DNA of 64,000 nt from an uncultured Thiotrichales bacterium (GCA_964614535.1 CAZTOZ010000023.1:81552-145551); one strand, 5' to 3'; shown: positions 10,168 to 64,000, counted from the first letter of the stretch. Translations and numbers: made by a program. Notes: a model not told the origin generated them from the sequence alone.

Positions 10168-10177
10168 CGGGATCTCC

Positions 10178-20124: not shown

Positions 20125-20547
20125 GTGAGCATACGCCCGCCGACGCTGAAACTGCGCCCGTCGCGGGCGATGGGCGTGTGGCGCATCGCCACCCATCTGC
20201 TGGCGGCGGCCGCCATCGCGCTGGCGAGGCTGCCAACACCGCTGGCCGCCATGCTGCTGCTGGTCGTCGCCGCCAGTCTGTGGCTCGGGTTGCGGCGTGA
20301 GCAGCGGCGCGGACGCTGGGTATTGACGCCGTTGACCGCGGACGACTGGCATCTGCGTTACCACGACCGGGAGGAGCGCGGCAGGGTGTGCGGGGGACGG
20401 GTCTTCCGCCACCTGGTGACGCTCCGTTTCCGCGTCGAGGGAAGGCGGTGGCCGCGCACCATCGCCATTGCCGCCGACGCCGTTCCGGCCGACGTCCATC
20501 GCCGTCTGCGTGCCTGGCTCAACCTGCGGGAGGGGGATCGCCAATGA
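20125..20547 (+). CDS. ygfX: YgfX/CptA-like inner-membrane protein
   Basis: Two TM helices followed by a basic Arg/Trp-rich tail. The N-terminal pattern LRPSRAMGVWRIATHLL parallels E. coli YgfX LRVSWRAQWLSLLIHGL. The start is uncertain: GTG at 20125 or ATG at 20170. Confidence 0.5.
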   Translation: MSIRPPTLKLRPSRAMGVWRIATHLLAAAAIALARLPTPLAAMLLLVVAASLWLGLRREQRRGRWVLTPLTADDWHLRYHDREERGRVCGGRVFRHLVTLRFRVEGRRWPRTIAIAADAVPADVHRRLRAWLNLREGDRQ

Positions 20548-21998
20548 AACGCTGGATCGACCATCTGCTCGAGACCGATCCCGAACAACGGCTGACGAGC
20601 TGGCTGTTCCTGCGCCTGCTCGCCATCGTCTACTTCGTCGCCTTCGCCTCGCTGTCGGTGCAGATCGTCGGGCTGGTCGGGCCGGACGGCATCCTGCCCT
20701 TCACCGAAGCGGCCAGGGTGGGCTACGAACGCTTCGGTCACGACGCCTGGTGGATGTTCCCGACGCTGTTCTGGATCGACGCCAGCGATGCCGCGCTGCA
20801 TGGCGCCACCTTCGCCGGGATGCTGCTGTCGCTGTCGCTGCTGTTCGGCTTCTATCCGCGCTTCTGCCTGACGCTGATGTTCGTGCTCTACCTGTCACTG
20901 CTGACGGCGGGGCAGACGTTTCTCACTTTCCAGTGGGACATCCTGCTGCTCGAGACGGGGTTCTTCGCCATCTTTCTCGCCGCCAACCCGAGCCGGCTGG
21001 TGATCTTCTTCTTCCACTGGCTGCTGTTCCGGCTGCGTTTCCTCTCCGGCCTGTCGAAAATCCTCAGCGGGGATCCGGTCTGGGCCAATCTGACGACACT
21101 CGACTACTACTTCGAGACCCAGCCGCTGCCCCATATCGGCTCCTGGTATGCGCACCATCTGCCAGAGGCGGTGCACCGTTTCGGTACCGGCTTCACGCTG
21201 TTCGCCGAGTTGATCGTGCCGTTCTTCATCTTCATGCCGCGGCCGTTCCGTATCGTCGCGGCGATCGTCACCACGCTGCTGCAGCTGGTCATCATCGCCA
21301 CCAGCAACCACAACTGGATCAACATCCTGACCATCGTGCTCTGCCTCTTTCTGCTCGACGACCGCATCGTCGGCCGACTGATGCCGAAGAACCTCGTGCG
21401 TTCGATTCTTGCCGCGACGCCACGCGTCGACCGGCGCTGGGGCGGCGCCCTGCTGCTGGGTGGGCTGCTGGTCTTCTCCACCAGCCTGCTGTCGATCCAT
21501 GCCCGCGTCATCGGCCAGATACCGCCGCCGTCGGTTGCTTTCGTCGCCGACGTGGTGCGTCACTACGGACTCGGCCATGTCTATCACGTCTTCCCGACGA
21601 TGCAGACCGAACGCCAGGAGCTGGAGATCGTCGGCTCCAACGACGGCAAGCGATGGCTGGCATACCGCTTTCGTTACAAGCCGGGGCCGCTCGATCGGCC
21701 ACCCCGGTTCAACGTGCCGCACCAGCCACGGCTCGACTGGCAGATGTGGTTTCTGCCACCGCAGTTCCCCGATCAGCTGGAGTGGTTCGACCGCTTCATG
21801 GGCAAAATCGCCGCCGGCGAGAAAAAGGTGCTGGCGCTGCTCGATGAAAACCCCTTCCCGGACCGGCCGCCAAGATATCTGCGTGTCCGCGTCTGGCGCT
21901 ACCACTTCACCACGCCGGAAGAACGGCGCCGCACCGGACAGTGGTGGAAGCGGGAGTTCCTCGGCTACTTTCCCCATACGCCGCCACGCCGGCCGTAG
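20544..21998 (+). CDS. lipase maturation factor (LMF1-like, DUF1222) family membrane protein
   Basis: Polytopic membrane protein with LMF family-wide similarity (LSGLSKILSGDPVWANLTTLDYYFETQPLP). Its ATG overlaps the ygfX stop in an ATGA arrangement. Confidence 0.8.
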   Translation: MKRWIDHLLETDPEQRLTSWLFLRLLAIVYFVAFASLSVQIVGLVGPDGILPFTEAARVGYERFGHDAWWMFPTLFWIDASDAALHGATFAGMLLSLSLLFGFYPRFCLTLMFVLYLSLLTAGQTFLTFQWDILLLETGFFAIFLAANPSRLVIFFFHWLLFRLRFLSGLSKILSGDPVWANLTTLDYYFETQPLPHIGSWYAHHLPEAVHRFGTGFTLFAELIVPFFIFMPRPFRIVAAIVTTLLQLVIIATSNHNWINILTIVLCLFLLDDRIVGRLMPKNLVRSILAATPRVDRRWGGALLLGGLLVFSTSLLSIHARVIGQIPPPSVAFVADVVRHYGLGHVYHVFPTMQTERQELEIVGSNDGKRWLAYRFRYKPGPLDRPPRFNVPHQPRLDWQMWFLPPQFPDQLEWFDRFMGKIAAGEKKVLALLDENPFPDRPPRYLRVRVWRYHFTTPEERRRTGQWWKREFLGYFPHTPPRRP

Positions 21999-22043
21999 CC
22001 GTCGGCACCTTGAAATCGCCGCCCTCAACCGCAGCTTTTCGAT

Positions 22044-22916
22044 ATGGGCGAGCAACGGCGAGACAGCAATCTCCTTGATGATCCGCTCTGGGTCGAACAG
22101 GTGGGTGATGGACCGGTGGTGGCCACCGCGATCCATGCCGGGCACGAAGTGCGGCGTGATCTGTTGCCACTGCTGGCGATCGACGAATCGACCCGGGCGC
22201 GGGAGGAAGATCCCTATACCGACGCGCTGGTCAAGGTGGTGCCGTCCTGGATTGCGTTCAAACGTTCCCGCTTCGAGGTGGATCTCAACCGGCCGAAGAA
22301 CGAAGCGGTCTATCTCTCGCCGGAGATGGCCTGGGGGTTGCACGTCTGGAAAAAACCGCTCGATGAAACCGAGATCGAACGCTCGCTGGAGGAGTACGAC
22401 GCCTTCTATGACGAACTCTATCGACTGCTGAAGAAGATCGAACGGCGGTATGGCTGTTTCGTCGTCTTCGACCTGCACAGCTACAACCATCGCCGCCGGG
22501 GACCACATGCGCCACCGGAGGATCCCGCTGGCAATCCCGATGTCAATGTGGGCACCGGTTCACTGGATCACAAGCGTTGTGGTGCGGTGGTAAGGCGGTT
22601 CATCGAGGATCTGCGCAACTACGATTTTCTCGGTCACCATCTCGATGTGCGGGAGAACGTCAAGTTCAAGGGGCGTCAGCTGGCCGAATGGATCCACCGG
22701 AAATTCCCCGATACGGCCTGTGTCCTGGCCATCGAATTCAAGAAATTCTTCATGGACGAGTGGACCGGTGTGGCCGACATCGATCAGGTGGTGGAGATTC
22801 GCAAGGCGCTGCAGGCAACGCTGCCCGGCATCGTCGAGACCCTGCACCGGATCCCGCAGTGCCAGAAAAAACGGCATGAGACGCCCCCCGGGAGCAGCGG
22901 CGATGCAGCGCGTTGA
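22044..22916 (+). CDS. N-formylglutamate amidohydrolase (FGase) family protein
   Basis: FGase-family similarity (VATAIHAGHEVR...DLHSY). The first gene of a conserved triad. Confidence 0.8.
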   Translation: MGEQRRDSNLLDDPLWVEQVGDGPVVATAIHAGHEVRRDLLPLLAIDESTRAREEDPYTDALVKVVPSWIAFKRSRFEVDLNRPKNEAVYLSPEMAWGLHVWKKPLDETEIERSLEEYDAFYDELYRLLKKIERRYGCFVVFDLHSYNHRRRGPHAPPEDPAGNPDVNVGTGSLDHKRCGAVVRRFIEDLRNYDFLGHHLDVRENVKFKGRQLAEWIHRKFPDTACVLAIEFKKFFMDEWTGVADIDQVVEIRKALQATLPGIVETLHRIPQCQKKRHETPPGSSGDAAR

Positions 22917-24744
22917 TGCACTGGCCGACCGGGTCATCGAAACGCTCGACAATGGCGAGCCGGTGGATCTTGCCTTGCCCGGTGGTGGCCGGCTGCACAT
23001 CGACCGTCCCCTGCCTTTTCTCTGCATCCACCGTAATGAAGAGGGTGCCGCCGACGACGTCACGGCCGCGCTGGTGGCTACCCAGTCGGCCTGGATGGTG
23101 GTGCCGGCGCCAGCAGCGCCCGAGGCATTGCTGAGTGCGCTGGCGGACTACCAACAGGCGCGGTTTGGCGCCTGCCTGTTGCTGGAGCTGTGGGCTGCCC
23201 CGCACGATGACGAGCAGTTGCCCGATCACGCCTTTTGCATCGTTGCGCCACAACGGCATCCGCCCCGGGAGGTGATCGACGAGCTGGAGAGTGCCCTCGT
23301 CAAGGTGACGATTCATCGCCGTACCCCCCGTATCGAGGTGGCCTACCGGCAGCGAGTGTCGCCCCCGGGATTGCCGCCATTGCCGGCAGGCGGGCCATGT
23401 CGGCGGCTCGGACTGGAGGTGAGTCCAGTCTATCGGGATCCCGAAAGCGGCGAGGTCTTCACCTTTGCGATGCGCGTTTTCCGGCAACGGCTCAATACGG
23501 CGCTCAAGCGCGCTTTCTACCGTTTTTCTCAGTGCTGCACACGGCATCGGCCCGCCCATTTCCATGCCCTCGGGCCGCGCTCGATCACGCCGGCGGTCAA
23601 GGCGGTCGATGCCCGGCTTGCCGAGATCAGCGAACGATTCGATCTGTTGCTGCACGTCACCCCGGTCAATGTGGCGCAGGCCTGGGCGGCATTCCAGGCG
23701 AGCCGCTTCGAGCAGGCCCCTGAATTTCTCTACCGCCCACGCACCATCGATCCCGACAGGATGAAACGGGCCCTCTACCAGATCGAGATGGAGAGCATCG
23801 AGGATCCCACGCTGGCCGATATCTTCCGTGCCAAGCGTGATGAACTGGATCGTCAGATCACGCTGGTGGCAGACCGCAATACTCCCCGCTTTCTGCTCGG
23901 CAGCCGGCAACTGTTCCCCGACCCCTCGACGGGGTTGATCGAACAGGCGCGACGGATTCTCGAGATGCCGCCCGCCAGCGAGCCGGAAGGGGGGGACGAG
24001 CGGCTCGACGCCAACGCTTTCGCCGCCCTGGCCGAAGCCGAGATGGCCCGGTACCGGGCTCGCGATCCCGACTTCGCCAGCCGGGTGGAGGTACGCGACG
24101 ATATCGCCGGTATCATGGTCTCCCACGGTAATTTTCTGATCGGTGCCCAGGCGACGGTGGCCCGCGCCAGGGTCGATGCCGCACTCGCCCACGAAATCGG
24201 GACCCATGTGCTGACCTGGCACAACGGCGGCAAGCAGCCGCTGCGGGAGTTGCGTAGCGGCATGGCCGACTATGAGGGGCTGCAGGAAGGGCTGGCGGTG
24301 TTGTCGGAGTTTCTCGTCGGTCAGCTCGATCGTGGCAGGATGCGGCAACTGGCAGCCCGGGTGCTCGCGGTGCAGATGATCTGTGCGGGCGCCAGCTTCA
24401 TCGATGCCTTTCGCCAGCTGCATCGGGGCTGGCAGTTTACGGCCAGGGATGCCTTCATGATCACCATGCGGGTCTGGCGGGGCGGGGGATATACCAAGGA
24501 TGTGATCTATCTGCGCGGGCTGGCGGATTTGCTCGACCATCTCGGCCGTGGGGGGGCGCTCGAGAACCTCTGGCTCGGCAAACTGGCGCAGCAGCGCCTG
24601 TCGCTGATCGATGAGCTGCGCTGGCGCGGGATCCTCCGGCCGCCGGCGCTGATACCCGCTTTCCTCGACGATCCGCGAACCGCCTCGCGTATCCGGCGTC
24701 TCGCAAAAGGGCTGTTGGTCAGTGATTTGTTGCCTGCGCAATGA
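22903..24744 (+). CDS. flavohemoglobin-expression-modulating QEGLA-motif protein (DUF1704, putative Tyr/Phe-carboxypeptidase-like)
   Basis: Contains the diagnostic EGLQEGLA motif and HEIGTHV (HExxH-like). Starts at an ATG with a GGAG ribosome-binding site 8 nt upstream, overlapping the FGase-gene end by 14 nt in another frame. Confidence 0.85.
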   Translation: MQRVDALADRVIETLDNGEPVDLALPGGGRLHIDRPLPFLCIHRNEEGAADDVTAALVATQSAWMVVPAPAAPEALLSALADYQQARFGACLLLELWAAPHDDEQLPDHAFCIVAPQRHPPREVIDELESALVKVTIHRRTPRIEVAYRQRVSPPGLPPLPAGGPCRRLGLEVSPVYRDPESGEVFTFAMRVFRQRLNTALKRAFYRFSQCCTRHRPAHFHALGPRSITPAVKAVDARLAEISERFDLLLHVTPVNVAQAWAAFQASRFEQAPEFLYRPRTIDPDRMKRALYQIEMESIEDPTLADIFRAKRDELDRQITLVADRNTPRFLLGSRQLFPDPSTGLIEQARRILEMPPASEPEGGDERLDANAFAALAEAEMARYRARDPDFASRVEVRDDIAGIMVSHGNFLIGAQATVARARVDAALAHEIGTHVLTWHNGGKQPLRELRSGMADYEGLQEGLAVLSEFLVGQLDRGRMRQLAARVLAVQMICAGASFIDAFRQLHRGWQFTARDAFMITMRVWRGGGYTKDVIYLRGLADLLDHLGRGGALENLWLGKLAQQRLSLIDELRWRGILRPPALIPAFLDDPRTASRIRRLAKGLLVSDLLPAQ

Positions 24745-24781
24745 CCGCCCGCATCAGCGGGCTTGAAACGGAGAAAGCACC

Positions 24782-25846
24782 ATGCGGATCGGCATCATCG
24801 TCAACAGCCTGTTCACCGAGAAGGCGAGCTACACCACCACGTCGCTCGCAATGACCGCGGCCAATCTGGGACACGAGGTGTGGTACATCGACGTGGACGC
24901 CTTCGCCCTGCGGCCGGACGACCACAGCTGGGCCCACGCCTGGCCGGTGCCGGCCGAACGCCACCGCAAACCCGCGACGTTCCTTGCGGCGATGTGGCGG
25001 CAGGCGCCGGGAACACGGCGTGAGATCGACCTGCATGCGCTGGACGTGCTGATGCCACGCAACGACCCCAGCCAGGACGCCATCAGCCGTCCCTGGGCAC
25101 GCACGGCCGCCATCAACTTCACCCGTCTGGCGCGGCGTGCCGGCGTATTGGTGCTCAACGACCCCGACGGGCTCGACCTTGGCCTGACGAAACTCTATAT
25201 GGAGTATTTCCCCGAGTCGGTACGGCCCCGGACACTGGTGACGCGAGACAAGGACGAGGCAAAGGATTTCATTGCCGGGCAGGGGGGGTATGCCGTACTC
25301 AAGCCGCTGGCCGGCTCGGGCGGGCAGAGCGTTTTTCTGGTGCGCCCCCACGACACGCCCAATATCAACCAGATGCTCGATGCGGTGGCACGGGACAACT
25401 ACTTCATCGTCCAGGAATATCTGCGCGATGCCATCCATGGCGACACCCGCCTCTTCCTGCTCAATGGCGAGCCGTTTCAGGTCGAGGGGCGCTATGCCGC
25501 ACTGCATCGCCGCCGTCGCAGTGGCGATGCCGACATGCGCAGCAACCTCACCGCTGGTGCCGAGGCCGCCCCTGCCAAGGTGGATGCCGGCATGCTTGGG
25601 CTGGCCCGACAGACCAGTGAGCGTCTCAAGGAAGATGGCATTTTCCTTGCCGGTCTCGATATCGTTGGCGACAAGATCATGGAGATCAATGTCCAGACAC
25701 CCGGCGGCCTGCCAGCGGCCGAGAAGTTCGAGGGCGTGCCATTCACGACGGCGTTGCTCGAAGCGATCGAACGCAAACTGCCCTATCGGGGAAAACTGGA
25801 GAACAAAGCGCTGGCGGTATTCGATCCGCTCGTCCAGGCACCGTGA
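24782..25846 (+). CDS. GshB/RimK-like ATP-grasp ligase (alpha-L-glutamate-ligase-related)
   Basis: ATP-grasp motifs (GYAVLKPLAGSGGQSVFLV, EINVQTPGG). GGAG ribosome-binding site upstream. Confidence 0.85.
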   Translation: MRIGIIVNSLFTEKASYTTTSLAMTAANLGHEVWYIDVDAFALRPDDHSWAHAWPVPAERHRKPATFLAAMWRQAPGTRREIDLHALDVLMPRNDPSQDAISRPWARTAAINFTRLARRAGVLVLNDPDGLDLGLTKLYMEYFPESVRPRTLVTRDKDEAKDFIAGQGGYAVLKPLAGSGGQSVFLVRPHDTPNINQMLDAVARDNYFIVQEYLRDAIHGDTRLFLLNGEPFQVEGRYAALHRRRRSGDADMRSNLTAGAEAAPAKVDAGMLGLARQTSERLKEDGIFLAGLDIVGDKIMEINVQTPGGLPAAEKFEGVPFTTALLEAIERKLPYRGKLENKALAVFDPLVQAP

Positions 25847-37026: not shown

Positions 37027-37503
37027 ATGAAGCTATCAACCAAAGGACGTTATGCCGTAACGGCAATGATGGACCTGGCGATCCACGATCGCGAGGGTCC
37101 GGTGACACTGGCAGACATCTCGCAGACACAGGGCATCTCCCTATCCTACCTCGAACAACTCTTCGCCAAGCTGCGCAAGCGCGGCCTGGTCGAAGGGGTG
37201 CGTGGTCCCGGCGGTGGCTACCGTCTGGCGCGGATGCCCCACCAGATCACGGTGGCGGAGATCATCACCGCGGTGGACGAGAACGTCGACGTCATGCGCT
37301 GCCACGGCGATGGCAACTGTCAGGACGGCGAACGCTGCCTGACCCATGAGCTGTGGTCGGAACTGAGTCAGCGGCTGTACGATTTTCTCGACGGCATCAC
37401 GCTGGATCAATTCGTCGAGCGCCCGGAGATCCGCGAGATCGCCCGCCGTCAGGACGAGGAGGCCAAACGCATGAATTTCGTCTTTCCGCGTCCCGCAGCC
37501 TGA
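37027..37503 (+). CDS. iscR: Fe-S cluster assembly transcriptional regulator IscR
   Basis: Rrf2 HTH ([18 protein letters not shown]) and the three cluster-ligand Cys (C92/C98/C104). GAGGAG ribosome-binding site. Confidence 0.95.
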
Positions 37504-37519
37504 TTTCAGGAGAAACCCC

Positions 37520-38740
37520 ATGTCCGTAAAACTCCCGATCTATCTGGATTACAGCGCAACCACGCCAGTGGACGAGCGTGTCGCCGAAAAGATGAGTGAG
37601 TGTCTGACCATCGATGGCGTGTTCGGTAATCCGGCATCGCGCAGCCACGCCTTCGGCTGGGCCGCCGATGAGCGCGTGGAGAATGCCCGTCGCCAGGTGG
37701 CCGAGCTGGTCAATGCCGATCCCAAGGAGATCGTCTGGACCAGCGGCGCCACCGAGAGCGACAACCTCGCCTTGAAAGGCGCGGCGCATTTCTACCGCAA
37801 GCGGGGGCAGCACATCATCACCTGCAAGACCGAACACAAGGCGGTGCTCGACACCTGTCGCCAGCTGGAGCGCGAAGGTTACGAAGTGACCTATCTCGAC
37901 CCGCAGGAGAACGGCCTGATCGATCTGGCCACGCTCGAGGCGGCGATGCGCGACGACACCATTCTCGTCTCGATCATGCATGTCAACAACGAGATCGGCG
38001 TCATCCAGGACATCGAGGCCATCGGCGAACTCTGCCGCGACCGTGGCATCCTCTATCACGTCGATGCCGCCCAGAGCGCCGGCAAGGTGCCGATCGACCT
38101 ACAGAAGCTCAAGGTCGACCTGATGAGCTTCTCGGCGCACAAGATCTATGGGCCCAAGGGCGTCGGCGCTCTCTACGTGCGGCGCCGGCCACGGGTGCGG
38201 ATCGAGGCGCAGATGCACGGGGGCGGGCATGAACGCGGCATGCGTTCCGGCACGCTGGCGACACACCAGTGCGTCGGCATGGGCGAGGCCTTCCGCATCG
38301 CCGGCGAAGAGATGGCGAGTGAGAACGAGCGGATTCTCAATCTGCGCAAGCGGCTCTGGGAAGGCTTCAAGGACATGGAGGAGGTCTATCTCAACGGTGA
38401 CGAGGAGCGCCGCGTGGCCGGCAATCTCAACGTCAGCTTCAATTTCGTCGAGGGCGAGAGCCTGATCATGGCGTTGAAGGATCTGGCGGTATCGAGCGGC
38501 TCGGCCTGCACCTCGGCCTCGCTGGAGCCCAGCTACGTGCTGCGCGCCATCGGCCGTGACGATGAGCTGGCCCATTCGTCGATCCGCTTTTCCATCGGTC
38601 GCTACACCACGGCCGAGGAGATCGAATACACGATCCAGAAAGTGCGCGATGCCATTGGAAAACTCCGTGATCTGTCCCCACTGTGGGAGATGTATCAGGA
38701 TGGTATCGATCTCAAGTCGATCCAGTGGGCGGCGCACTGA
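37520..38740 (+). CDS. iscS: cysteine desulfurase IscS
   Basis: PLP-Lys ([12 protein letters not shown]), active-site [17 protein letters not shown], and full-length similarity. Confidence 0.97.
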
Positions 38741-38800
38741 CGTCTTCGCCCGGTTCTGTCGCCGGGACGACGACCACAACGCATTCAGAGGTGTACGAAA

Positions 38801-39190
38801 ATGGCATACAGTGAAAAGGTCATCGACCATTACGAGAATCCGCGCAACGTCGGCGTGCTGGACAAGGACGCCGACGACGTCGGCACCGGCATGGTCGGCG
38901 CGCCCGCCTGTGGCGACGTCATGCGGCTGCAGATCAAGGTCAACGACGATGGCGTCATCGAGGACGCCAAGTTCAAGACCTACGGCTGCGGCAGCGCCAT
39001 CGCCTCCAGCAGCCTGCTGACCGAGTGGGTCAAGGGGAAGACCCTGGAGGAGGCGGCGCAGATCAAGAATTCCGACATTGCCGAAGAGCTGGCCTTGCCC
39101 CCGGTCAAGGTTCACTGCTCCGTTTTGGCGGAAGATGCGATCAAGGCCGCCATCGAGGACTATCAGGGCAAGCGCAAGCGGGATGCCTGA
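38801..39190 (+). CDS. iscU: Fe-S cluster scaffold IscU
   Basis: Three Cys (GAPACGD, GCGSAIASS, HCSVLAEDA) and the LPPVK motif. Confidence 0.97.
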   Translation: MAYSEKVIDHYENPRNVGVLDKDADDVGTGMVGAPACGDVMRLQIKVNDDGVIEDAKFKTYGCGSAIASSSLLTEWVKGKTLEEAAQIKNSDIAEELALPPVKVHCSVLAEDAIKAAIEDYQGKRKRDA

Positions 39191-39211
39191 ACGGCCATAG
39201 CCAAGAGAGGT

Positions 39212-39541
39212 GTGATCATGGCGATTACCTTGACCGACGCGGCCGCCGACCGCGTCAGGAACTTCCTCGAAAAGCGCGGTTCGGGCATCGGCCTGCGGCT
39301 CGGGGTCAAGACCACCGGTTGCTCGGGGATGGCCTATGTGCTGGAGTTTGCCGACCAGGTGGAGCCGCAGGATACGGTCTTCGAGGACAAGGGCGTCAAG
39401 ATCATCGTCGATCCGAAGAGCCTGACCTACCTCGACGGCACCGAGCTGGATTTCGCCCGCGAGGGGCTCAATGAGGGTTTCAAGTTCAACAACCCGAACG
39501 AGGCCGATCGCTGTGGGTGCGGAGAGAGCTTCACCGTCTGA
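39212..39541 (+). CDS. iscA: iron-sulfur cluster insertion protein IscA
   Basis: A-type carrier, C-terminal CGCGESF. Confidence 0.95.
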
Positions 39542-39565
39542 TCGCAGCCCGACCGCACCCAGCCC

Positions 39566-39598
39566 GAAAAAAGCCGGCCCGAGCCGGCTTTTTTCTTC
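39566..39598 (+). terminator. intra-operon stem-loop + T-tract between iscA and hscB (AGCCGGCccgaGCCGGCT TTTTTC)
   Basis: Read directly from sequence. Likely a partial terminator or attenuator. Confidence 0.5.
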
Positions 39599-39618
39599 CA
39601 ACGCATTCGAGTCAAGCC

Positions 39619-40161
39619 ATGCCGATTGATCTGACCGACAACTATTTCGCGCTGTTCTCACTACCGGTGGCCTTCGACATCGACCTGGCCGAGTTGGGCG
39701 AGCGGTATCGCGCACTGCAACAGGCGGTGCATCCCGACCGTTTTGCCGCCGCCGACGCGCAGGCGCAGCGTGCCTCGGTGCAGCACACCACCCACCTCAA
39801 CGAGGCCTACGAGACGCTCAAGGATCCGCTGCGACGCGGCTTCTACATGCTCAAGCTCAAGGGCGTCGGTTCCGACCATCACGATTACACCACGGCCGAC
39901 GGCACCTTCCTGATGCAGCAACTGGCCCACCGCGAGGCGCTGGAGGAGATTCCCCGGCAGGACGACCCGTTCGCCGCGCTGGATCGCCTGCGGGACACCG
40001 TCGAGGCCGAGGAGCAGGCGCAGATGGCGGCCTTCCGCGATGCCTGGGCGGTGGCCGACTACGAGGCCGCCAACGACGCCCTGACCAAGGTGATGTTCAT
40101 CCGCCGGCTGCAACAACAGCTCGACGAAACCGAAGAACAGCTCGAAGAGACATTGGATTGA
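39619..40161 (+). CDS. hscB: co-chaperone HscB
   Basis: J-domain HPD motif (QQAVHPDRF) plus a C-terminal helical domain. Confidence 0.9.
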
Positions 40162-40163
40162 CG

Positions 40164-42038
40164 ATGGCACTACTGCAGATCTCCGAACCTGGCATGTCCA
40201 CCGCGCCCCATCAGCGCAAGCTGGCGGCGGGCATCGACCTCGGCACCACCAATTCGCTGGTGGCCTCGGTCCGCAGCGGCGTGGCCGAGACGCTGCCCGA
40301 TGAACAGGGACGGCACCTGCTGCCGTCGGTGGTCCACTACCGCGAAGACGGGCCGCCGCTGGTGGGCTACGAGGCGCTGCAACGGGCCAGTGACGATCCG
40401 CTGAACACCATTGCGTCGGTCAAACGACTGATGGGGCGTGGCGTCGAGGATCTGAAGCGACTCGGCGGCCAGCTCTCCTACCGCATCGCCGAAGGCGAGG
40501 GCCATGTTCCACGCATCGTCACCGCCGCCGGGGAGAAGACGGCGGTCGAGGTCTCGGCCGACATACTCAAGGCGCTGAGGGATCGCGCCGAGGCCACGCT
40601 GGGAGGCGAGCTGGAGGGGGTGGTCATCACCGTCCCCGCCTATTTCGACGATGCCCAGCGGCAGGCAACCAAGGATGCGGCCAGGCTGGCGGGGCTCGAG
40701 GTGCTGCGGCTGCTCAATGAGCCCACCGCAGCGGCGGTCGCCTATGGGCTGGAGAGCGGCGACGAAGGGGTGATCGCGGTCTACGACCTCGGTGGTGGCA
40801 CGTTCGATATATCGATCCTCCGGCTCCACAAGGGGGTTTTCGAGGTGCTGGCCACCGGAGGCGACTCGGCGCTCGGTGGCGACGACCTCGATCACGCCAT
40901 CGCCGAATGGCTGCTGCAATCCCTCGGCATCGAATCGTCCGACGATCACCGCCTGATGCGGCAGCTGATGACGGCGGCCCGCCAGGCAAAGGAGGCTCTT
41001 ACCACCGGCGAGGCGACCACCATCGAGATCACGCTGCCCGACGGCACAACCTGGCGGACCGAGCTGACGCGCGCGCGCTTCGACGAGCTGGTGCGACCAC
41101 TGGTCCGCAAGACCACCAGCGCCTGCCGCCGCGTGCTGCGCGACGCCGGCATCGACAAGGCGGCAGTGCGCGAGGTGGTGATGGTCGGCGGTTCGACGCG
41201 GGTACCCCTGGTGCGGCAGATGGTGGGCGAGTTCTTCGGTCGTGAACCGCTGGTGAGCATCGACCCCGACAAAGTGGTCGCCGTCGGCGCCGCGATTCAA
41301 GCGGACGTGCTGGTCGGCAACAAACCCGATGGTGACCTGTTGCTGCTCGATGTCATCCCGCTGTCGCTCGGGATCGAGACGATGGGCGGGCTGGTGGAGA
41401 AGATCATCCCCCGCAACACCACCATTCCGGTGGCCCGCGCCCAGGAGTTCACCACCTACAAGGATGGTCAGACGGCGATGGCGATCCACGTCGTCCAGGG
41501 CGAGCGGGAACTGGTCGCCGACAATCGCTCGCTGGCCCGTTTCGAGCTGCGCGGGATCCCGCCGATGGTCGCCGGCGCGGCCCGGATCCGCGTCACCTTC
41601 CAGGTGGATGCCGACGGCCTGCTCAATGTCTCCGCGCGCGAGGAGACCAGCGGCGTCGAGGCGTCGATCACGATCAAGCCCTCCTACGGCCTGTCGGACG
41701 AGGAGATCGAAACGATGCTGCGCGATTCGATGGAGCACGCCGCCGAAGACATGGCCGCCCGGATGCTGCGGGAGCAGCAGGTGGAGGCCGACCGGGTCAT
41801 CGAGGCGCTCGACGCGGCGCTGGCCAAGGATGGCGACGAACTGCTGACGGCACAGGAGAAGGCCGCAATCCTCGACGCCCGTCAGCAGCTCATCGAGGCT
41901 CGCCAGGGCAGCGACACCGCCGCGATCAAGGCGGCCATCAAAACCGTCGAGAAACGCGCCGAAACCTACGTGGAGCGACGCATGAACAGCAATATCCGCC
42001 AGGCGATGGCGGGTCACAACGTCGAGGAATTCGAGTAA
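40164..42038 (+). CDS. hscA: chaperone HscA (Hsc66)
   Basis: Hsp70 ATPase motifs ([17 protein letters not shown]). Confidence 0.95.
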
Positions 42039-42045
42039 ACACACC

Positions 42046-42384
42046 ATGCCGAAACTGATCTTTCTGCCGCACGAGGAACTCTGCCCCGAGGGGGCCGTCA
42101 TCGAAGCCGAGCCCGGCACCACCATCTGCGATGCAGCGCTGGCGCACGGCATCGAGATTGAACACGCCTGCGAGAAGTCCTGCGCCTGCACCACCTGCCA
42201 CGTCTACGTGCGGGAGGGGTTCGACTCGTTGAACGAAGCCAGTGACGACGAGGAGGACATGCTCGACAAGGCCTGGGGCGTCGATCCCGACTCCCGGCTG
42301 AGCTGTCAGGCGGTGGTCGACCACGAGGATCTGGTGGTCGAGATCCCCAAATACACGATCAATCAGGTATCCGAAAACCATTGA
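42046..42384 (+). CDS. fdx: [2Fe-2S] ferredoxin of the ISC system
   Basis: Cys ligands CEKSCACTTCH...C, with adrenodoxin-type spacing. Confidence 0.95.
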   Translation: MPKLIFLPHEELCPEGAVIEAEPGTTICDAALAHGIEIEHACEKSCACTTCHVYVREGFDSLNEASDDEEDMLDKAWGVDPDSRLSCQAVVDHEDLVVEIPKYTINQVSENH

Positions 42385-42400
42385 CGGAGGAGGTGACACG

Positions 42401-42601
42401 ATGGGGCTGAAATGGACCGATACGCTCGATATCGCCATCGCGCTGGACGAGGCGCATCCGGACGTCGATCCGCTGACGGTCAACTTCGTCGATCTGCGCA
42501 ACTGGATCCTCGGACTCGACGACTTCGATGACGACCCGGAACACTCCGGCGAACGCATCCTCGAGGCGGTGCAGATGGCCTGGATCGACGAGCGGAGCTA
42601 A
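42401..42601 (+). CDS. iscX: Fe-S assembly protein IscX (YfhJ)
   Basis: 66 aa, acidic. MGLKWTDTLDIAIAL...FVDLRNWI matches the IscX family. Confidence 0.9.
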   Translation: MGLKWTDTLDIAIALDEAHPDVDPLTVNFVDLRNWILGLDDFDDDPEHSGERILEAVQMAWIDERS

Positions 42602-58123: not shown

Positions 58124-58159
58124 CACCAAAAAGAAAAGGCCCGCGAATGCGGGCCTTTT
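58124..58159 (-). terminator. rho-independent terminator for the Gly/Tyr-rich gene (GGCCCGCattcGCGGGCC + TTTTCTTTTT on minus strand)
   Basis: Stem-loop and T-tract, read directly from sequence. Confidence 0.6.
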
Positions 58160-58188
58160 CCACGTGCCTTGCGGCGAGTAAGCGATGC

Positions 58189-59022
58189 TTACTTGCCTTC
58201 GGCCTTTGCAGCCGGCTTCGGCGCTTCGGCAGCCGCTTTCTTGGACTGGGCTTCGAACGCCTGGCGCTGGGCCTGCATCTGCTTCTGGAACTCGGCGAAG
58301 GCCTTCTGCTGGGCTTCCATGGCAGCCTTACGCTGGGCCTGCATCTGCTGCATCATCGCGCTGTTGTCGGGACGCGCGGGACGCTGAGGCATCTGCATGG
58401 CAGGACGCTGGGGCGGTGCCATCATCGGCGCGGGGGCGGCAGCCTGCCCCGCTGCGGCAGGTGCGGCTGCGGGCGCAGCAGCAGGTGCGACCGGAGCCGG
58501 TGCCCAGCCGTAGCCACGGCCGTAGTACGGACGACCGTAGTAGTTGTCGCCGGACCAGTTCTGGTAGCCGTCACCATAACCGTAGCCGCTGCCATAACCG
58601 TCGCCATAACCGCTGCCATAGCCGTCACCGTAACCGTAGCCGCTGCCATAGCCGTCGCCATAACCGCTGCCATAACCGTCACCGTAACCGCTGCCATAGC
58701 CATGACCACGACCCTTGCCACGGCCACGAGCCTTGCCGGAGATGCTCAGGTTGAAGGAACCATCGACATCACCATCGACATCGCCGTCGGTGTAACCGGA
58801 ACCATAGCCGCTGCCGCGGGAAGTGCCGTAACCGGAACCGTAGCCGCGGGTGTCGCCATAGCCGTAACCACGGGTATCGCCATAGCCATAGCCACGGGTA
58901 TCGCCGTAGCCGTAGCCGCGACCATCGCCCCAGCCGGAGCCATCATCGAACCAGTCGCCAGCGACGGCGGCGGAAGTGGAAACTGCGATTGCAGCTGCAA
59001 GTGCAAGCTTGGTGTATTTCAT
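58189..59022 (-). CDS. secreted Gly/Tyr-repeat low-complexity protein, sulfur-globule-protein-like (Sgp-like)
   Basis: Signal peptide MKYTKLALAAAIAVSTSAAVA. Tandem GYGDTR and GYGSGYGDGY repeats, then an Ala/Pro/Gln/Met-rich tail. GAGGA ribosome-binding site. A dedicated terminator follows. The ORF-finder TTG extension was not used. Confidence 0.7.
   Translation of the reverse strand: MKYTKLALAAAIAVSTSAAVAGDWFDDGSGWGDGRGYGYGDTRGYGYGDTRGYGYGDTRGYGSGYGTSRGSGYGSGYTDGDVDGDVDGSFNLSISGKARGRGKGRGHGYGSGYGDGYGSGYGDGYGSGYGYGDGYGSGYGDGYGSGYGYGDGYQNWSGDNYYGRPYYGRGYGWAPAPVAPAAAPAAAPAAAGQAAAPAPMMAPPQRPAMQMPQRPARPDNSAMMQQMQAQRKAAMEAQQKAFAEFQKQMQAQRQAFEAQSKKAAAEAPKPAAKAEGK
58556..58930. repeat. in-frame tandem nucleotide repeats (18-24-nt units) encoding the GYG repeats
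   Basis: Visible periodicity (ccgtagccgctgccataaccgtcgccataaccgctgccatagcc...). This is a coding repeat, not a CRISPR array. Confidence 0.6.
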
Positions 59023-59926
59023 TACGATGTCCTCGTATTTTTGAACAAAAGAAGGTTGTTGTTGGTAACTCAAGAGTCGCGGCGGGGATTCCTCTCCGTC
59101 AGTCCGTTGACAACCCGGTTGCCGTTCCTCGAGCGTTGCATAAGTATATTCTAATATATCGAATTTAGTAAACCCGATACCGGCTCCCGCTTGATGTATC
59201 TCAAGCTTTTTAAGTCACTGGTTATCAAGGAGATTTCCTCTAAAACCACGACAGCCGACGGCTGCTTTAGGGTAACCCCTAGTGAAATACAAATTCACTT
59301 TTCGCCGCGGCCAAACCGTGGCCCTCGTGACCCACGTGCCACGGTTCGGGAGGGAACCAAAAGCATTGCCGGGAATCAGTATCCTGAGCGGACGTCATCG
59401 TCCTGCCGTTGGATAAAACGTTGGCGGGGAGGCGTCGGCAACAGCCGTGTCGCCCACATGGCCTCCCTGCCGGGTGTCGATTCCTGAAGGGTGGATACCC
59501 CATCGCTCGGTCGCGGATAGTAGGGGCGACGGGCATGGCCGGCAACGACAAGACGACGTATCCGTCATCTGAGCAAGATGAACGGTACCCTGGTACTGCC
59601 ACCAGTGACCGTGGTTCAAAGCCCGGGCGTCGGAGACAGGAGACACGAGGATGTGCAACCGTTCCAGGCGCCAAGAAGGGATTAGTGGTATGATTCGCAC
59701 GACAAGATGTCATTTTCCCATCCGAATGGAAACAACTGTTTACGATGCAATACAGTAGTACGCAGTAAAATACGCCGCGAATCCAGGCCGGGTCGCTTCC
59801 CGGTTTGTGAAAACATCTGTAATTTCAACATCATGGAACGGAGCCGGAGGGAGCCGGCGGTGTATTTGACAATATAATGAACGGGCACAAAGCCCCAATT
59901 CCCGTCGCAGGGGGAGACTGAGAGCC

Positions 59927-60679
59927 TTGAGAATAGCCTACCTAGAAGACGACCCGGACCAGGCGCGCCTGAGCCGCCTCTGGCTCGAAGACGCCGGTCA
60001 CCAGGTAACTTGTTTCGAGACGGGGCGCGAGCTGGTGCGAGTGCTGCGTTCCGAGAGCTTCGACCTGTTGGTGCTGGACTGGATGGTGCCCGATATGTCC
60101 GGCATCGAGGTACTCGACTGGACACGCAGCCATTACGACTGGAACGTGCCGGTACTGTTCTGCTCCCAGCGGGGCAGTGAGGAGGACATCGTCCGCGCGC
60201 TCGAAGCCGGTGCCGACGACTACATGGAAAAGCCGCTCAGCCAGCGGGAACTGATCGCACGCGTCGGCGCGTTACAACGCCGCATGCTGTTGGGCAGAAG
60301 CAACTCGCAATCGCTGGAGTTCACGCCATACACCATCGACCTCGCCAACCGTACCATCGCATTGGACGGCATACCGATCGAACTCACCCAGAAGGAGTAC
60401 GATCTGGCGGTCTTCCTGTTCAAGAACCTTGGGCGAGCGATCTCTCGCGGTCATATCCTCGACACGGTCTGGGGCATGTCCCCCGATCTCAACACCCGAA
60501 CCGTCGATACGCACATCAGCCGACTGCGCAAGAAACTCCGGCTGGGGCCGGAAACCGGGTGGGTACTCACCTCCATCTATCAGCACGGCTACCGTCTCGA
60601 CCAGATCGACAAGCAGGTCTCCTCCGGTGGTGGCATGAGCAGTGCAGCGGAAATGCAGGACGCTGGCAACGCCGGCTGA
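59927..60679 (+). CDS. OmpR-family response regulator
   Basis: Receiver domain (DLLVLDWMVPDMSG) and a winged-helix output domain (ELTQKEYDLAVFLFKNLGRAISR...YRL). TTG start with a GGGGAG ribosome-binding site 10 nt upstream. Confidence 0.85.
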   Translation: MRIAYLEDDPDQARLSRLWLEDAGHQVTCFETGRELVRVLRSESFDLLVLDWMVPDMSGIEVLDWTRSHYDWNVPVLFCSQRGSEEDIVRALEAGADDYMEKPLSQRELIARVGALQRRMLLGRSNSQSLEFTPYTIDLANRTIALDGIPIELTQKEYDLAVFLFKNLGRAISRGHILDTVWGMSPDLNTRTVDTHISRLRKKLRLGPETGWVLTSIYQHGYRLDQIDKQVSSGGGMSSAAEMQDAGNAG

Positions 60680-60830
60680 TCGGACCCGTCTCTCGGGCGA
60701 ACCCTGATATCACGGCCATACTCTTTGCGTCGCATGGTGCTGGCAGGTGCCAACGCCATGTGACGGGCACGGCGAGTCGCCGGTCCTGACGTAGTAGAAT
60801 AGGGGGCCTACAGCTTCTGACGGTGATCCC

Positions 60831-61346
60831 ATGACATCCGAATCCGACCTGCGTGACCTGGCACCGACGACGCCCTCCCGAGACCCTGCGGGCGGTGTCC
60901 CATCCCCCACCGCCGACGACCAGATTCTGGCCGAAGTGCGTGAAATTCTCATCGGCCCGCAACTGCGCGCGCTCGACGAGCGCTTTGGGCGTGTCGAAAA
61001 GATGGTGCTGACGCACAACAGCCGGCTGCTCAAGTTACTCGACCGCCGGATCACCGTCGTCGAGGAGCTGGTGAAGAGCCGGATCAGCAGATTGCAGGAG
61101 AAGCTCGATGCCCAGGATCACGCCATCGACGATCTCGACACCCGGCTGCTCGATCAGAGCCGGGCTCTGCGCGCCGAGTTCGATGCCCTGGACGCCTCGC
61201 TGAAGCAACAACTGTCGGCACTGCAAGCCACTCTCGATGCCGAGACCGCGGCGCTGCGCGAAGGTGCCCGCAGTCACGACAGGGATCTGGCGAAGCTGTT
61301 CCAGGAAATGGCCGCCCGGCTGCTCGATGGCAACCCCGACCGATGA
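60831..61346 (+). CDS. coiled-coil hypothetical protein (171 aa)
   Basis: Heptad-rich sequence (EELVKSRISRLQEKLDAQDHAIDDLDTRLLDQSRALRAEFDALDASLKQQLSALQATLD). Confidence 0.6.
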   Translation: MTSESDLRDLAPTTPSRDPAGGVPSPTADDQILAEVREILIGPQLRALDERFGRVEKMVLTHNSRLLKLLDRRITVVEELVKSRISRLQEKLDAQDHAIDDLDTRLLDQSRALRAEFDALDASLKQQLSALQATLDAETAALREGARSHDRDLAKLFQEMAARLLDGNPDR

Positions 61347-62857
61347 CCACCTCGTCCGACCTGAAAAAGCTGCAGTCACTGCTGTTCGGGCCACAGCAGG
61401 AGAGGCTCGACACGCTGGCCGCGCGGCTGAATGATCCGGAACAGCGCGCCGACGACGTCGCCGACGTCATCGTCGACGCGTTGCAGCGCACGCCCAACAA
61501 GGAAAACCTCTCCCGCGTCATATCGGAACCCACGACCGAAGCGATCCGTCTCTCCATCCAACGCGACAGTAAGCACGTAGCCGGCATCCTCTATCCGGCG
61601 GTACTGCCGGCCATCCGCAAATCCATCGAGCAGACGATGCAGAACTTCATGGAGGGCATCGATCTGCTGGTGAAACAGCAGTTCTCGATCGACTCGCTGA
61701 AATGGCGGTTCGAGTCCCTGCGGACCGGCGTGCCTTTTCACGAGATCATGCTACGCAACCTGCTGCGTTACCAGGTCGAGCAGCTCTTTCTGATCCATCG
61801 TGAAAGTGGGCTGTTGATCGAGCATGTCTCTTGCTCGGAGGAGATTGGCAGGGACCAGGATGCCGTCTCCGCGATGCTGACGGCGATCGAATCGTTCGTT
61901 CGGGAATCGTTCGCCGACGAGAACGACGCCGACGACCGGCTCGACCGCGTCACCGTGGGTGACCGCATCGTCTATCTGGAGCACGGCCCCCATGCCATCG
62001 TCGCCAGCGTGGTTCGGGGCGTGGCGACACCGGCCTATCGGGAAAAGCTGAAACAGATCAACGAGGAGGTGCATGCCGCCTACAGCCGGCAGCTGCGTTA
62101 TTTTTCCGGCAGGGAAGGGGACATCGATGGTCTGAAAAACCTGCTGTCGCAAGGGCTGGCCCGTGAATTCCAGGTCCAGGAGAAGCGCAGCGAAGAACAA
62201 AAGGCAAGACGGCTCAAAATGCTCGGCGGATCAATGGCCGCGGCTCTGCTGCTGGTGGCCGGCTACCTCGCTTGGGGGGCCTGGGAAAAATCCCGCGTCA
62301 ACCGGCTGATGGACCAGCTCACCCAGCGGGACGGCATCGTCACCACGCGCCTCGACAAGCACAATGGCCGGTGGCGAATCAGCGGCCTCAGGGATCCGGC
62401 GGCCATTCCGCCCGACGACATCGTTACGCGACTCGGCCTCGACGACGACGTCCAACTGCAATTCGAGCCCTACCTCTCCCTCTCCCCGGCGGTGGTGATC
62501 GAACGCGCCCGAAAAAAATTGAACATTCCGGCCACGGTGACGTCTGAACTGGAAGGGGAGACGCTGCGGCTGTCGGGGCCCGCCCCGCTGGACTGGTATC
62601 TGTCGCTGCCACGGACCGGCGGGTTACCGCCAGGCAGCGCCCGCCTCGCCCCCTCCGGCCTAGAACTCGATCCCGATGAAGTCAGGGCACTGCTGGCGGC
62701 GCGTCTGCCCGGGATCGAACCGGTTGAGATTCACCGCAACACACAAGGCATACTGGAAATCAGGATCGGTAGCGACGTCGCGGCGGAGAAGGCCGCCGCC
62801 ATCGAACGGCTCGCAACCATGCTGGCGCCGCGGGCAAAAATCATCATCTCGGGCTGA
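61343..62857 (+). CDS. membrane protein with cytoplasmic roadblock/LC7 (MglB-like) domain and C-terminal periplasmic BON-like repeats
   Basis: ATGA overlap with the upstream gene. Residues ~150-230 fit the roadblock pattern (ESGLLIEHVS...DAVSAMLTAIESF...RVTVGDRIVYLEHGPHAIVASVVRG). A single TM (MAAALLLVAGYLAWGAW) is present. Confidence 0.55.
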   Translation: MTTSSDLKKLQSLLFGPQQERLDTLAARLNDPEQRADDVADVIVDALQRTPNKENLSRVISEPTTEAIRLSIQRDSKHVAGILYPAVLPAIRKSIEQTMQNFMEGIDLLVKQQFSIDSLKWRFESLRTGVPFHEIMLRNLLRYQVEQLFLIHRESGLLIEHVSCSEEIGRDQDAVSAMLTAIESFVRESFADENDADDRLDRVTVGDRIVYLEHGPHAIVASVVRGVATPAYREKLKQINEEVHAAYSRQLRYFSGREGDIDGLKNLLSQGLAREFQVQEKRSEEQKARRLKMLGGSMAAALLLVAGYLAWGAWEKSRVNRLMDQLTQRDGIVTTRLDKHNGRWRISGLRDPAAIPPDDIVTRLGLDDDVQLQFEPYLSLSPAVVIERARKKLNIPATVTSELEGETLRLSGPAPLDWYLSLPRTGGLPPGSARLAPSGLELDPDEVRALLAARLPGIEPVEIHRNTQGILEIRIGSDVAAEKAAAIERLATMLAPRAKIIISG

Positions 62858-62860
62858 ACC

Positions 62861-63355
62861 ATGATCTCTTACCGCAAGAAAATCTGTCTGATCGGCGATT
62901 TTGCCGTCGGCAAGACGAGCCTGGTCCGGCGATACGTCGATCATGTCTTTTCCGAAGACTACATGACCACCGTCGGCGTCAGCATCGTCACCCGTGAGGT
63001 ACAACTGGATCGCAATGCCCGGGTCAAACTGGTCATCTGGGACATCGCCGGCGCCGACAAACTGACGACCGTCTCCCGCGCCTATCTGGCGGGCGCCAAC
63101 GGCTATATCCTGGTGGCCGACGGCACGCGCCGGCAGACGCTGGAAACCGCGATGGAACTGGAAAAGGCGGCCAATGCCGCGCTGAACCATCCCCGTAGCA
63201 TCAAGCTGATCAACAAGCACGATCTGGCCGATGCCTGGGAGGCCGACGACCAGGATGGCTTGGCCGACTGGCAAATAACCAGCGCCAAATCGGGAGAAGG
63301 GGTGGAGCAGGCATTTCTCACGTTGGCCCGTCGCTTTCTGGACGATGCTCGATAA
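62861..63355 (+). CDS. Ras-like small GTPase (MglA/Rup-type)
   Basis: G1 GDFAVGKTS, G2 Thr in YMTTVG, G3 WDIAGAD (no Gln after DxxG), G4 NKHD, G5 SAK. Confidence 0.8.
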   Translation: MISYRKKICLIGDFAVGKTSLVRRYVDHVFSEDYMTTVGVSIVTREVQLDRNARVKLVIWDIAGADKLTTVSRAYLAGANGYILVADGTRRQTLETAMELEKAANAALNHPRSIKLINKHDLADAWEADDQDGLADWQITSAKSGEGVEQAFLTLARRFLDDAR

Positions 63356-64000
63356 CTGCTTTCATCCATTGCTGGCGGCCCGGTACCATCCCGCCATGCT
63401 CGAAGTGGACCGCAACGGCAGCCTGCGGCGCTGGAGCGGCGATCTCGGCTGGTACGGCCTGGCACCCCGCACCGAAATGATCGGCACACCGGCGGAAGAT
63501 CTCCTGCCGGTCATTATCGGACTGGATCTCGATACCGCGCAGACGCTGCCGCTCGTCCAGCTTCCCGGCGGGCAGCCGGCGGATATCGTCATCGAGCCCG
63601 ATGCCAACGGCGACGGCAGCCGTATCTTTCTGCTGGCGGCACAGGAAACCCACGACACGATTCAGCCGGTCCAACAGCACAGCCACGAAATCACGCTGCT
63701 CTATCAGAAACTGCAGTCGCTGTCCGAACAACTGCAACAAAAAAATATCGAGCTGGAGCACGCCATCGATGCGCGCAACCAGTTCATCTCCGGCGTATCG
63801 CACGAATTCCGCACACCGATCACCACGATCCTTGGCCATTGCGACCTGCTCGCCTCCTACTGCACGAAGGGGGACGACGACATTCAAAACAGCTTTCAGG
63901 CCATCGACAAAAACGCAAAATACCTGCTGGCCCTCATCGACAACCTGTTGGAGCAGGGCGAGATCAGCGCCAAACGGCTGGTCATCACACCGGCCCCCCT
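63345..64000 (+). CDS. cytoplasmic sensor histidine kinase (3' end outside window)
   Basis: HisKA H-box (ISGVSHEFRTPITTILG) after a ~150-aa N-terminal domain with no TM. The start overlaps the GTPase gene end by 11 nt, and the frame stays open to nt 64000. Confidence 0.8.
   Translation, partial: MLDNCFHPLLAARYHPAMLEVDRNGSLRRWSGDLGWYGLAPRTEMIGTPAEDLLPVIIGLDLDTAQTLPLVQLPGGQPADIVIEPDANGDGSRIFLLAAQETHDTIQPVQQHSHEITLLYQKLQSLSEQLQQKNIELEHAIDARNQFISGVSHEFRTPITTILGHCDLLASYCTKGDDDIQNSFQAIDKNAKYLLALIDNLLEQGEISAKRLVITPAP

Follow-up and report, generated by a model that had tools for sequence, protein, structure and literature searches.

Is a secreted protein built largely of glycine and tyrosine repeats a coat for stored sulfur, or does it only resemble one in composition? 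The question is raised by a gene at 58189..59022 on the minus strand of a 64,000-nucleotide stretch of DNA (the window) from an uncultured Thiotrichales bacterium (GCA_964614535.1 CAZTOZ010000023.1:81552-145551). A first-pass annotation of the window had likened its product to sulfur globule proteins (Sgps). The evidence from motifs, profiles and part order makes it probable that the gene product is a long form within the Sgp family and coats periplasmic sulfur globules. Among bacterial inclusions, the envelopes of sulfur globules are some of the least understood: to our knowledge, no structure or assembly mechanism of an Sgp is known, and we know of no conserved Sgp domain beyond one short Pfam profile from purple sulfur bacteria.

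Membership of the sulfur globule protein family

The 277-aa protein is rich in glycine (21.7%), alanine (16.2%) and tyrosine (10.5%), and is composed of the following parts.

58960..59022, minus strand: Sec-type signal peptide, residues 1-21 (sequence rules; predicted cleavage after A-V-A)
58924..58959, minus strand: N-terminal Sgp motif GDWFDDGSGWGD, residues 22-33 (the Sgps of Beggiatoa leptomitoformis and Thioflexithrix have the same FDDGSGWGD)
58765..58923, minus strand: repeat block 1, residues 34-86, about four copies of GYGYGDTR, then GYGSGYG and GDVD repeats
58702..58764, minus strand: family core motif DGSFNLSISGKARGRGKGRGH, residues 87-107 (hhalign against Beggiatoaceae Sgps; kept in alignment A1)
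58543..58701, minus strand: repeat block 2, residues 108-160, GYGSGYGDGY-type repeats (Tandem Repeats Finder)
58423..58800, minus strand: region matching Pfam SGP (PF17228), residues 75-200, above the gathering cut-off when scored alone
58363..58542, minus strand: Tyr/Arg-rich YYGRPYYGRGYGW, then an Ala/Pro and then a Met/Pro/Gln-rich linker, residues 161-220 (translation)
58228..58362, minus strand: Gln/Ala/Lys/Met-rich predicted alpha-helix, residues 221-265 (AlphaFold2; similarity of the tail to relatives; weak heptad signal)

Does the likeness to Sgps go beyond composition? A word-indexed protein search with the full-length sequence was swamped by unrelated GYG-repeat proteins, while the N-terminal 115 aa retrieved only four true relatives, all fragmentary. 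A scan of metagenome DNA was saturated by the GYGYGDGY pattern, and its 41-codon match in the GY-repeat region, on a 1.4-kb contig, was taken as uninformative. Because plain searches were dominated in this way by unrelated GYG-repeat proteins, tests sensitive to residue order were used.

These tests were made against three published Beggiatoaceae Sgps, whose sequences are given in the supplement of PMC7356093: B. leptomitoformis D-402 ALG67575.1, B. alba EIJ43877.1 and Thioflexithrix OUD13142.1. The first of these has been detected by mass spectrometry and is induced 10-fold by thiosulfate, and in one strain that cannot form globules a transposon interrupts its gene. The protein studied here carries the exact 9-mer FDDGSGWGD at residues 25-33. 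It also fits the motif D-F-[NS]-[ML]-S-[MI]-x-G, then R-G, of Beggiatoaceae-type Sgps, with FNLSISGKARG at residues 90-100 (FNLSISGKARGRG spans residues 90-102). An hhalign comparison of the long family with the Beggiatoaceae Sgps gave 96% probability and an E-value of 4e-9 on this core motif. Smith-Waterman alignments with the three published proteins reached z-scores of 5.3-5.6, and none of 300 composition-preserving shuffles attained the observed score. The alignments are collinear: they start at the motif, continue across the GY repeats and reach the Ala/Pro end.

The Pfam SGP profile, whose gathering cut-off is 26.7 bits, points in the same direction. Taken by themselves, residues 75-200 reach 36.4 bits (E 9.8e-9); the full-length protein reaches 21.7 bits (E 3.8e-4). 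The score rises to 32.8 bits once block 1 and the tail are deleted, and to 46.8 bits when both repeat blocks are collapsed; the full-length shortfall is attributed to the repeat expansions and to composition correction. The published proteins fare little better at full length: B. leptomitoformis Sgp, at 27.7 bits, is barely above the cut-off, and those of B. alba (22.7 bits) and Thioflexithrix (21.4 bits) are under it. NCBIfam has no Sgp model, and the verified Beggiatoa Sgp receives no match there either. Profile, motif and shuffle tests against Beggiatoa-type Sgps therefore support the family link, and the resemblance that the first-pass annotation had noticed is more than compositional, as the Pfam fragment, hhalign, the 9-mer and the shuffles all indicate. 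The true homologs are Sgp-like, not cell-wall or biofilm proteins.

Two other kinds of match were rejected. Pfam matches to TrAA12 and to keratin-type families do not reach the cut-offs of those families and are compositional. The cytoplasmic GYG-repeat proteins that make up most of the database matches (such as P0003, P0005, P0008, P0012 and P0020) resemble the protein only in its GYGSGYGDGY repeats. Proteins of this type have N-terminal GYG repeats followed by a conserved globular domain (...FAHG...W-H-x-x-LTGSC-x-x-GR...) that is absent from the Sgp-like protein; they have no signal peptide and neither of the two Sgp motifs.

The signal peptide and the repeats had also been recognised in the first-pass annotation, and both hold. 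Judged by sequence rules, MKYTKLALAAAIAVSTSAAVA, cleaved before GDW, has a basic n-region (Lys2, Lys5), a hydrophobic core and an A-x-A site (A-V-A at -3/-1). The N-terminus has neither a twin-Arg motif nor a lipobox Cys, and AlphaFold2 places a helix at residues 4-17, within the signal peptide. The GYGDTR and GYGSGYGDGY repeats are in-frame arrays. Tandem Repeats Finder reports a period of 24 nt (4.4 copies at 58838-58942, encoding GYGYGDTR), one of 12 nt (two copies at 58759-58782, encoding GDVD) and one of 54 nt (2.3 copies at 58568-58690 with 95% matches, encoding the 18-residue GYG unit GYGSGYGDGYGSGYGYGD). All the periods in the gene are multiples of 3. Block 1 separates the N-terminal motif from the core motif. 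The mature protein would be about 26.5 kDa.

The gene and its expression signals

Is the reading frame a real gene, and how might it be expressed? The coding sequence and its flanking signals are as follows.

58189..59022, minus strand: coding sequence of the Sgp-like precursor, 277 aa plus stop codon (relatives of the same architecture)
59030..59034, minus strand: Shine-Dalgarno sequence GAGGA, 7 nt upstream of the ATG (direct sequence reading)
59143..59172, minus strand: promoter-like site TTTACT-18 nt-TATACT (consensus scan and composition profile; consensus match only)
58132..58161, minus strand: intrinsic terminator with a 13-bp G+C-rich stem, a 4-nt loop and a T-run

The start codon is the ATG at 59022..59020 on the minus strand, and a Joint Genome Institute (JGI) gene call on an independent metagenome contig (metagenome 3300028908, contig Ga0256914_1012685) is an identical 277-aa gene; a contig of 50-200 kb carries the gene as well. 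The open reading frame (ORF) first proposed is therefore real; its stated length of 278 aa is corrected to 277 aa and a stop codon. It is the only Sgp-like ORF in the window. Compared with other genes of the window, its codon usage is shifted to CGT (11 of 15 Arg codons), GGT and GCT/GCA. A skew towards CGT, GGT and GCT is typical of abundant proteins under translational selection in Gammaproteobacteria, and the bias of this gene would fit high expression.

The promoter-like site (59172..59143) sits within an AT-rich patch with a G+C fraction of 0.39-0.46, and implies a 5' untranslated region of about 110-120 nt. The terminator begins 27 nt past the stop codon; the strong hairpin and T-run at 58161..58132 on the minus strand bear out the earlier claim that the gene has its own. 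With a strong ribosome-binding site, a strong terminator and a putative promoter, the gene is a monocistronic unit. The terminator and promoter-like site match the organisation reported for sgp genes, which are monocistronic with their own promoter and rho-independent terminator (PMC10386293).

The non-coding gap upstream, first given as 850 bp, measures 904 bp (59023..59926) and separates the gene from a divergent regulator gene. It contains no protein-like ORF, and Rfam gives no match in it or in or around the sgp-like gene. The ends of the gap are AT-rich and its core (59245..59720) has normal G+C. On the minus strand this core folds better than 100 of 100 shuffles (z -3.67; plus strand z -2.40), and a terminator-like hairpin lies at 59265..59251 on the minus strand, just upstream of the sgp promoter-like site. 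The core could be a small RNA or a long regulatory leader.

Relatives in metagenomes

An exhaustive phmmer search over 1.84 billion representatives gave 233 matches at E <= 1e-3, of which the 150 listed were screened. Among these 150, every relative that has both a signal peptide and the core motif shows the same complete part order, and all relatives begin with a similar signal peptide. The best examples include P0130 (E 9e-13, alignment covering residues 1-263) and P0131 (E 2e-12); further relatives of the same order among the matches listed are P0147, P0160, P0174, P0185, P0246 and P0267. Several score on Pfam SGP, and P0267 passes its cut-off at 36.9 bits. The relatives come from organisms of 37-53% G+C and are carried on contigs no longer than 2.1 kb; one is from a hydrothermal-vent metagenome.

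The relatives are found almost only on contigs of 0.7-2.1 kb (L083-L089), where several gene calls look broken or chimeric. In P0130, for example, the call continues into an HMGL-like domain, and in P0002, P0121 and P0122 the reading frame is lost beyond the GDMDGD repeat. Assemblies evidently break up at repeat-rich sgp genes, so that metagenome surveys would count too few of them.

A helical tail behind the Gly/Tyr-rich head

What follows the Gly/Tyr-rich head? The linker has regularly spaced prolines, with APAPVAPAAAPAAAPAAA...PPQRPAMQMPQRPARP at residues 174-218, and a low predicted local distance difference test score (pLDDT). Behind it, AlphaFold2 predicts a helix at residues 220-266, in agreement with the helical segment that had been proposed within a low-complexity tail. 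The helix has a pLDDT of 95-98 with a 9-sequence alignment and of about 81-94 from the single sequence (10-residue block means). It is the only ordered element predicted in the mature protein, residues 26-196 having a pLDDT below 50.

Six relatives (P0130, P0131, P0147, P0160, P0185 and P0267) end in a Gln/Lys/Ala/Glu/Met-rich segment resembling residues 221-265. The similarity exceeds composition for P0160 (z 5.05), P0130 (z 4.0) and P0131 (z 3.6); for P0147, P0185 and P0267 it is no greater than composition explains. A word-indexed protein search with the tail alone (residues 161-277) gave no match at E <= 0.01. A weak heptad signal is present: Met and Phe occupy 46% of the a/d positions against 31 +/- 6% in shuffles (p about 0.025). 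An amphipathic membrane-binding helix was considered and rejected, as the hydrophobic moment does not differ significantly from that of shuffles (p about 0.19). The C-terminal helical module appears to be kept in a small subfamily, a feature that the first-pass annotation overlooked, as it did the unusual length of the protein.

Comparison with characterised sulfur globule proteins

The Beggiatoaceae Sgps share with this protein a Sec-type signal peptide, FDDGSGWGD just past the cleavage site, the core F-N-[LM]-S-[IM]-x-G ... R-G, Gly/Tyr repeats and a Tyr/Ala/Pro-rich end. Their full-length Pfam SGP scores lie in the same range (21.4-27.7 bits, compared with 21.7), and their hosts are sulfur bacteria of the Thiotrichales/Beggiatoaceae group. 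In contrast to the 277-aa precursor, however, they have only 134-152 aa. Their two motifs are contiguous (FDDGSGWGDFNMSMGGGGRGYGR) right after the signal peptide, whereas in the longer protein they are kept apart by a stretch of some 55 residues made up of (GYGYGDTR)n, GYGSGYG and GDVD repeats. Moreover, the three published sequences stop at the Ala/Pro stretch, whereas the Sgp-like protein has an expanded GYG block and, appended to it, a spacer of about 45 residues and a 45-residue helix.

SgpA and SgpB (CV1/CV2) and SgpC (CV3) of Allochromatium vinosum, a member of the Chromatiaceae, are the basis of Pfam PF17228. They too are exported structural proteins with a repetitive, Gly/Tyr-rich sequence. 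Each is the product of a monocistronic gene that has a promoter and a terminator of its own, and residues 75-200 of the Sgp-like protein match the profile built on them (a comparison made through the Pfam model only). The A. vinosum Sgps are reported as 11-13 kDa or 10.5 kDa and are thus too small for such a helical tail; for A. vinosum and Thiocapsa, small Sgps of 8.5-8.7 kDa are reported. At 26.5 kDa, the mature Sgp-like protein is about twice the size of the usual Sgps (8.5-15 kDa).

A different likeness is offered by SgpD (Alvin_2515, UniProt D3RP35) of A. vinosum, whose gene adjoins a two-component regulator gene. SgpD is bound to the globules; it has a Sec signal peptide, regularly spaced prolines in its centre and long alpha-helices that are predicted with confidence. 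By BLAST, SgpD is almost confined to the Chromatiaceae (PMC10386293). The Sgp-like protein shares with it a proline-spaced linker and a long helix, a likeness that is architectural only and drawn from the description of SgpD; an OmpR-type regulator gene is also the divergent neighbour of the sgp-like gene. SgpD, however, lacks the Gly/Tyr-rich SGP head.

The literature likens Sgps to keratins and plant cell-wall proteins. Keratin-associated and plant glycine-rich cell-wall proteins resemble the Sgp-like protein in Gly/Tyr repeat composition only, and the Pfam matches to KRTAP and Keratin_2_head are weak and far below the cut-offs. These eukaryotic Gly/Tyr-rich proteins are not homologous to it.

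The protein departs from the characterised Sgps considered here in its size, in the insertion of repeats between the motifs and in the linker-plus-helix tail. No Sgp consisting of a head and a helix is described in the literature searched, outside which key reviews lie, and an earlier description is possible.

Host and sulfur genes

Does the host store sulfur? The IspG encoded downstream is closest to those of uncultured Thiotrichales (82%), followed by Thiothrix and Thiolinea (75-76%), which places the organism in the Thiotrichales. Thiothrix is among the genera known for envelope-bound sulfur globules. The sulfur-trafficking genes proposed in the first-pass annotation are present in the window, and both were confirmed by Pfam.

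10178..10411, minus strand: TusA (PF01206, E 2.9e-26)
9553..10239, minus strand: DsrE2-type protein (PF13686, E 6e-51)

Thus, sulfur genes do occur in the window, in the form of tusA and dsrE2. As listed, the dsrE2 ORF of this pair (9553..10411) runs into tusA, and only from residue 62 onwards is it matched by Pfam; therefore, the true start is probably an internal Met near 10167. The pair has no adjacent rhodanese gene, and a TetR-family regulator gene lies upstream.

Alternative explanations

How far do these data support an Sgp that coats sulfur globules? Several points weigh against it. Composition-adjusted BLASTP against P0042 and P0002 found nothing significant, which is why shuffle-calibrated Smith-Waterman and profile methods were used instead, and the full-length score is under the Pfam gathering score. 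The case therefore rests on motif, part-order and profile evidence in a low-complexity protein. The mature protein has a grand average of hydropathy of -0.99 and is not hydrophobic, whereas the Sgps of A. vinosum have been described as extremely hydrophobic; its tail, moreover, is not significantly amphipathic. The relatives are singletons on short metagenome contigs, none with experimental support. No sox, dsr, sqr or fccAB genes were seen in the annotated parts of the window, where housekeeping and regulatory genes make up most of the remainder and a few genes are of uncertain role; we therefore infer sulfur storage from taxonomy and from tusA and dsrE2. Finally, the 80 genome loci around ispG homologs have no nearby Gly/Tyr-rich ORF or tblastn match. 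The neighbouring parE and response-regulator genes are likewise not syntenic in related genomes. The lack of synteny in the 80 genomes makes the position of the gene lineage-specific and is silent on function.

Other readings must account for the same observations. A frame that is spurious in G+C-rich repetitive DNA, or a real gene that is instead the overlapping plus-strand ORF 58147..59154, might be suspected, as long overlapping ORFs occur on both strands and the window has 64% G+C. However, the minus-strand frame has a ribosome-binding site, a signal peptide and repeats whose periods are all multiples of 3, a terminator follows it on that strand, and JGI called the gene independently; relatives from organisms with 37-53% G+C encode the same architecture, and the plus-strand ORF translates to featureless low-complexity sequence. 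We regard this explanation as having a negligible chance of being correct. It is also highly improbable that an unrelated, disordered periplasmic protein has converged on the same low-complexity composition. Convergence would be in keeping with the non-significant BLASTP, the full-length Pfam score under the cut-off and the fact that most database matches are clearly unrelated GYG-repeat proteins, but the order-dependent signals outlast composition-preserving shuffles, the natural fragment 75-200 clears the Pfam cut-off, and the 9-residue and 7-13-residue motifs have the order and the position relative to the signal peptide that they have in verified Sgps.

A true Sgp homolog might still serve another extracytoplasmic structural role, in a sheath, a holdfast, a biofilm matrix or the scaffold of another inclusion. 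Secreted Gly/Tyr-rich proteins serve as structural materials in many contexts, and the weak keratin-associated Pfam matches illustrate such use; in addition, the protein is about twice the usual size, it has two additions unseen in the characterised Sgps compared, and sulfur-oxidation enzyme genes were not found in the annotated parts of the window. On the other hand, the SGP domain is intact, as are the two family motifs, and P0267, which bears the tail and also clears the SGP cut-off (36.9 bits), joins that tail to a canonical SGP domain. Sulfur storage is consistent with the affiliation to Thiotrichales and with tusA-dsrE2, and one relative comes from a hydrothermal-vent metagenome. Such a role is unlikely, and a long-form Sgp of the globule envelope is the preferred explanation.

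Other genes in the window

The sgp-like gene adjoins a divergent cluster (59927..64000) with the following genes.

59927-60679, divergent from the sgp-like gene: OmpR-type response regulator
60831-61346, divergent cluster: 171-aa protein that looks coiled-coil
61343-62857, divergent cluster: 504-aa protein without a Pfam family
62861-63355, divergent cluster: Ras-family small GTPase (PF00071, E 4.6e-26)
running off the window end, divergent cluster: HisKA histidine kinase

A Ras-like GTPase inside a two-component operon is unusual. Elsewhere in the window (20388..25846), three adjacent plus-strand genes are bacterial homologs of families typical of eukaryotes.

20388-21998, plus strand: lipase maturation factor (LMF1 and LMF1_C)
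22645-24744, plus strand: MATCAP-type tyrosine carboxypeptidase domain (E 6e-87)
24782-25846, plus strand: glutathione-synthetase/RimK-type ATP-grasp ligase

The proximity of the carboxypeptidase and ligase genes suggests a pair for the ligation and trimming of peptide tails. An apparently complete isc operon lies at 37027..42601 (iscR, iscS, iscU, iscA, hscB, hscA, fdx and iscX, judged from ORF N-termini), with rlmN (confirmed by Pfam), a rodZ-like gene and hisS behind it. The ispG gene is outside the isc cluster, as it is in the other gammaproteobacterial relatives examined.

Proposed function and significance

How might a long-form Sgp work? The precursor would be exported to the periplasm, where the disordered head might self-associate through many Tyr, Arg and Asp contacts and coat nascent, hydrophobic zero-valent sulfur, giving a thin protein envelope. 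By analogy with its characterised counterparts, the protein would be expected to localise on sulfur globules; the envelope role is modelled on SgpA/B/C in Allochromatium and on the 15-kDa Sgp in Beggiatoa. Such an envelope would keep the stored sulfur apart from the periplasm yet available, and the sulfur might later be fed via TusA and DsrE2 to a cytoplasmic oxidation route. The helical tail most likely provides lateral coiled-coil-type protein contacts in the coat or docks a partner.

Does the protein represent an unrecognised, modular subfamily of Sgps? A tentative proposal, which we consider possible rather than probable, is that an SGP head, a proline-spaced linker and a coiled-coil-type helix combine the coat role of the SgpA/B type with an SgpD-like scaffold or docking role. 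The near-identical DNA repeats could vary in copy number, and if the proposal of a modular subfamily is correct, these in-frame, 95% identical repeats would let expansion tune the thickness of the coat or the size of the globule. The clean boundary between the disordered head and the predicted helix would also be useful in experiments that tag or truncate the protein or assemble it in vitro.

The understanding of sulfur storage itself would be unchanged by a long Sgp variant. Current profiles miss such genes, given that the Sgp-like protein and the Sgps of B. alba and Thioflexithrix all fall below the Pfam cut-off at full length, and the motifs FDDGSGWGD and F-N-[LM]-S-[IM]-x-G could improve sgp gene detection. 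The practical gain would be a better annotation of sulfur storage capacity in metagenomes.

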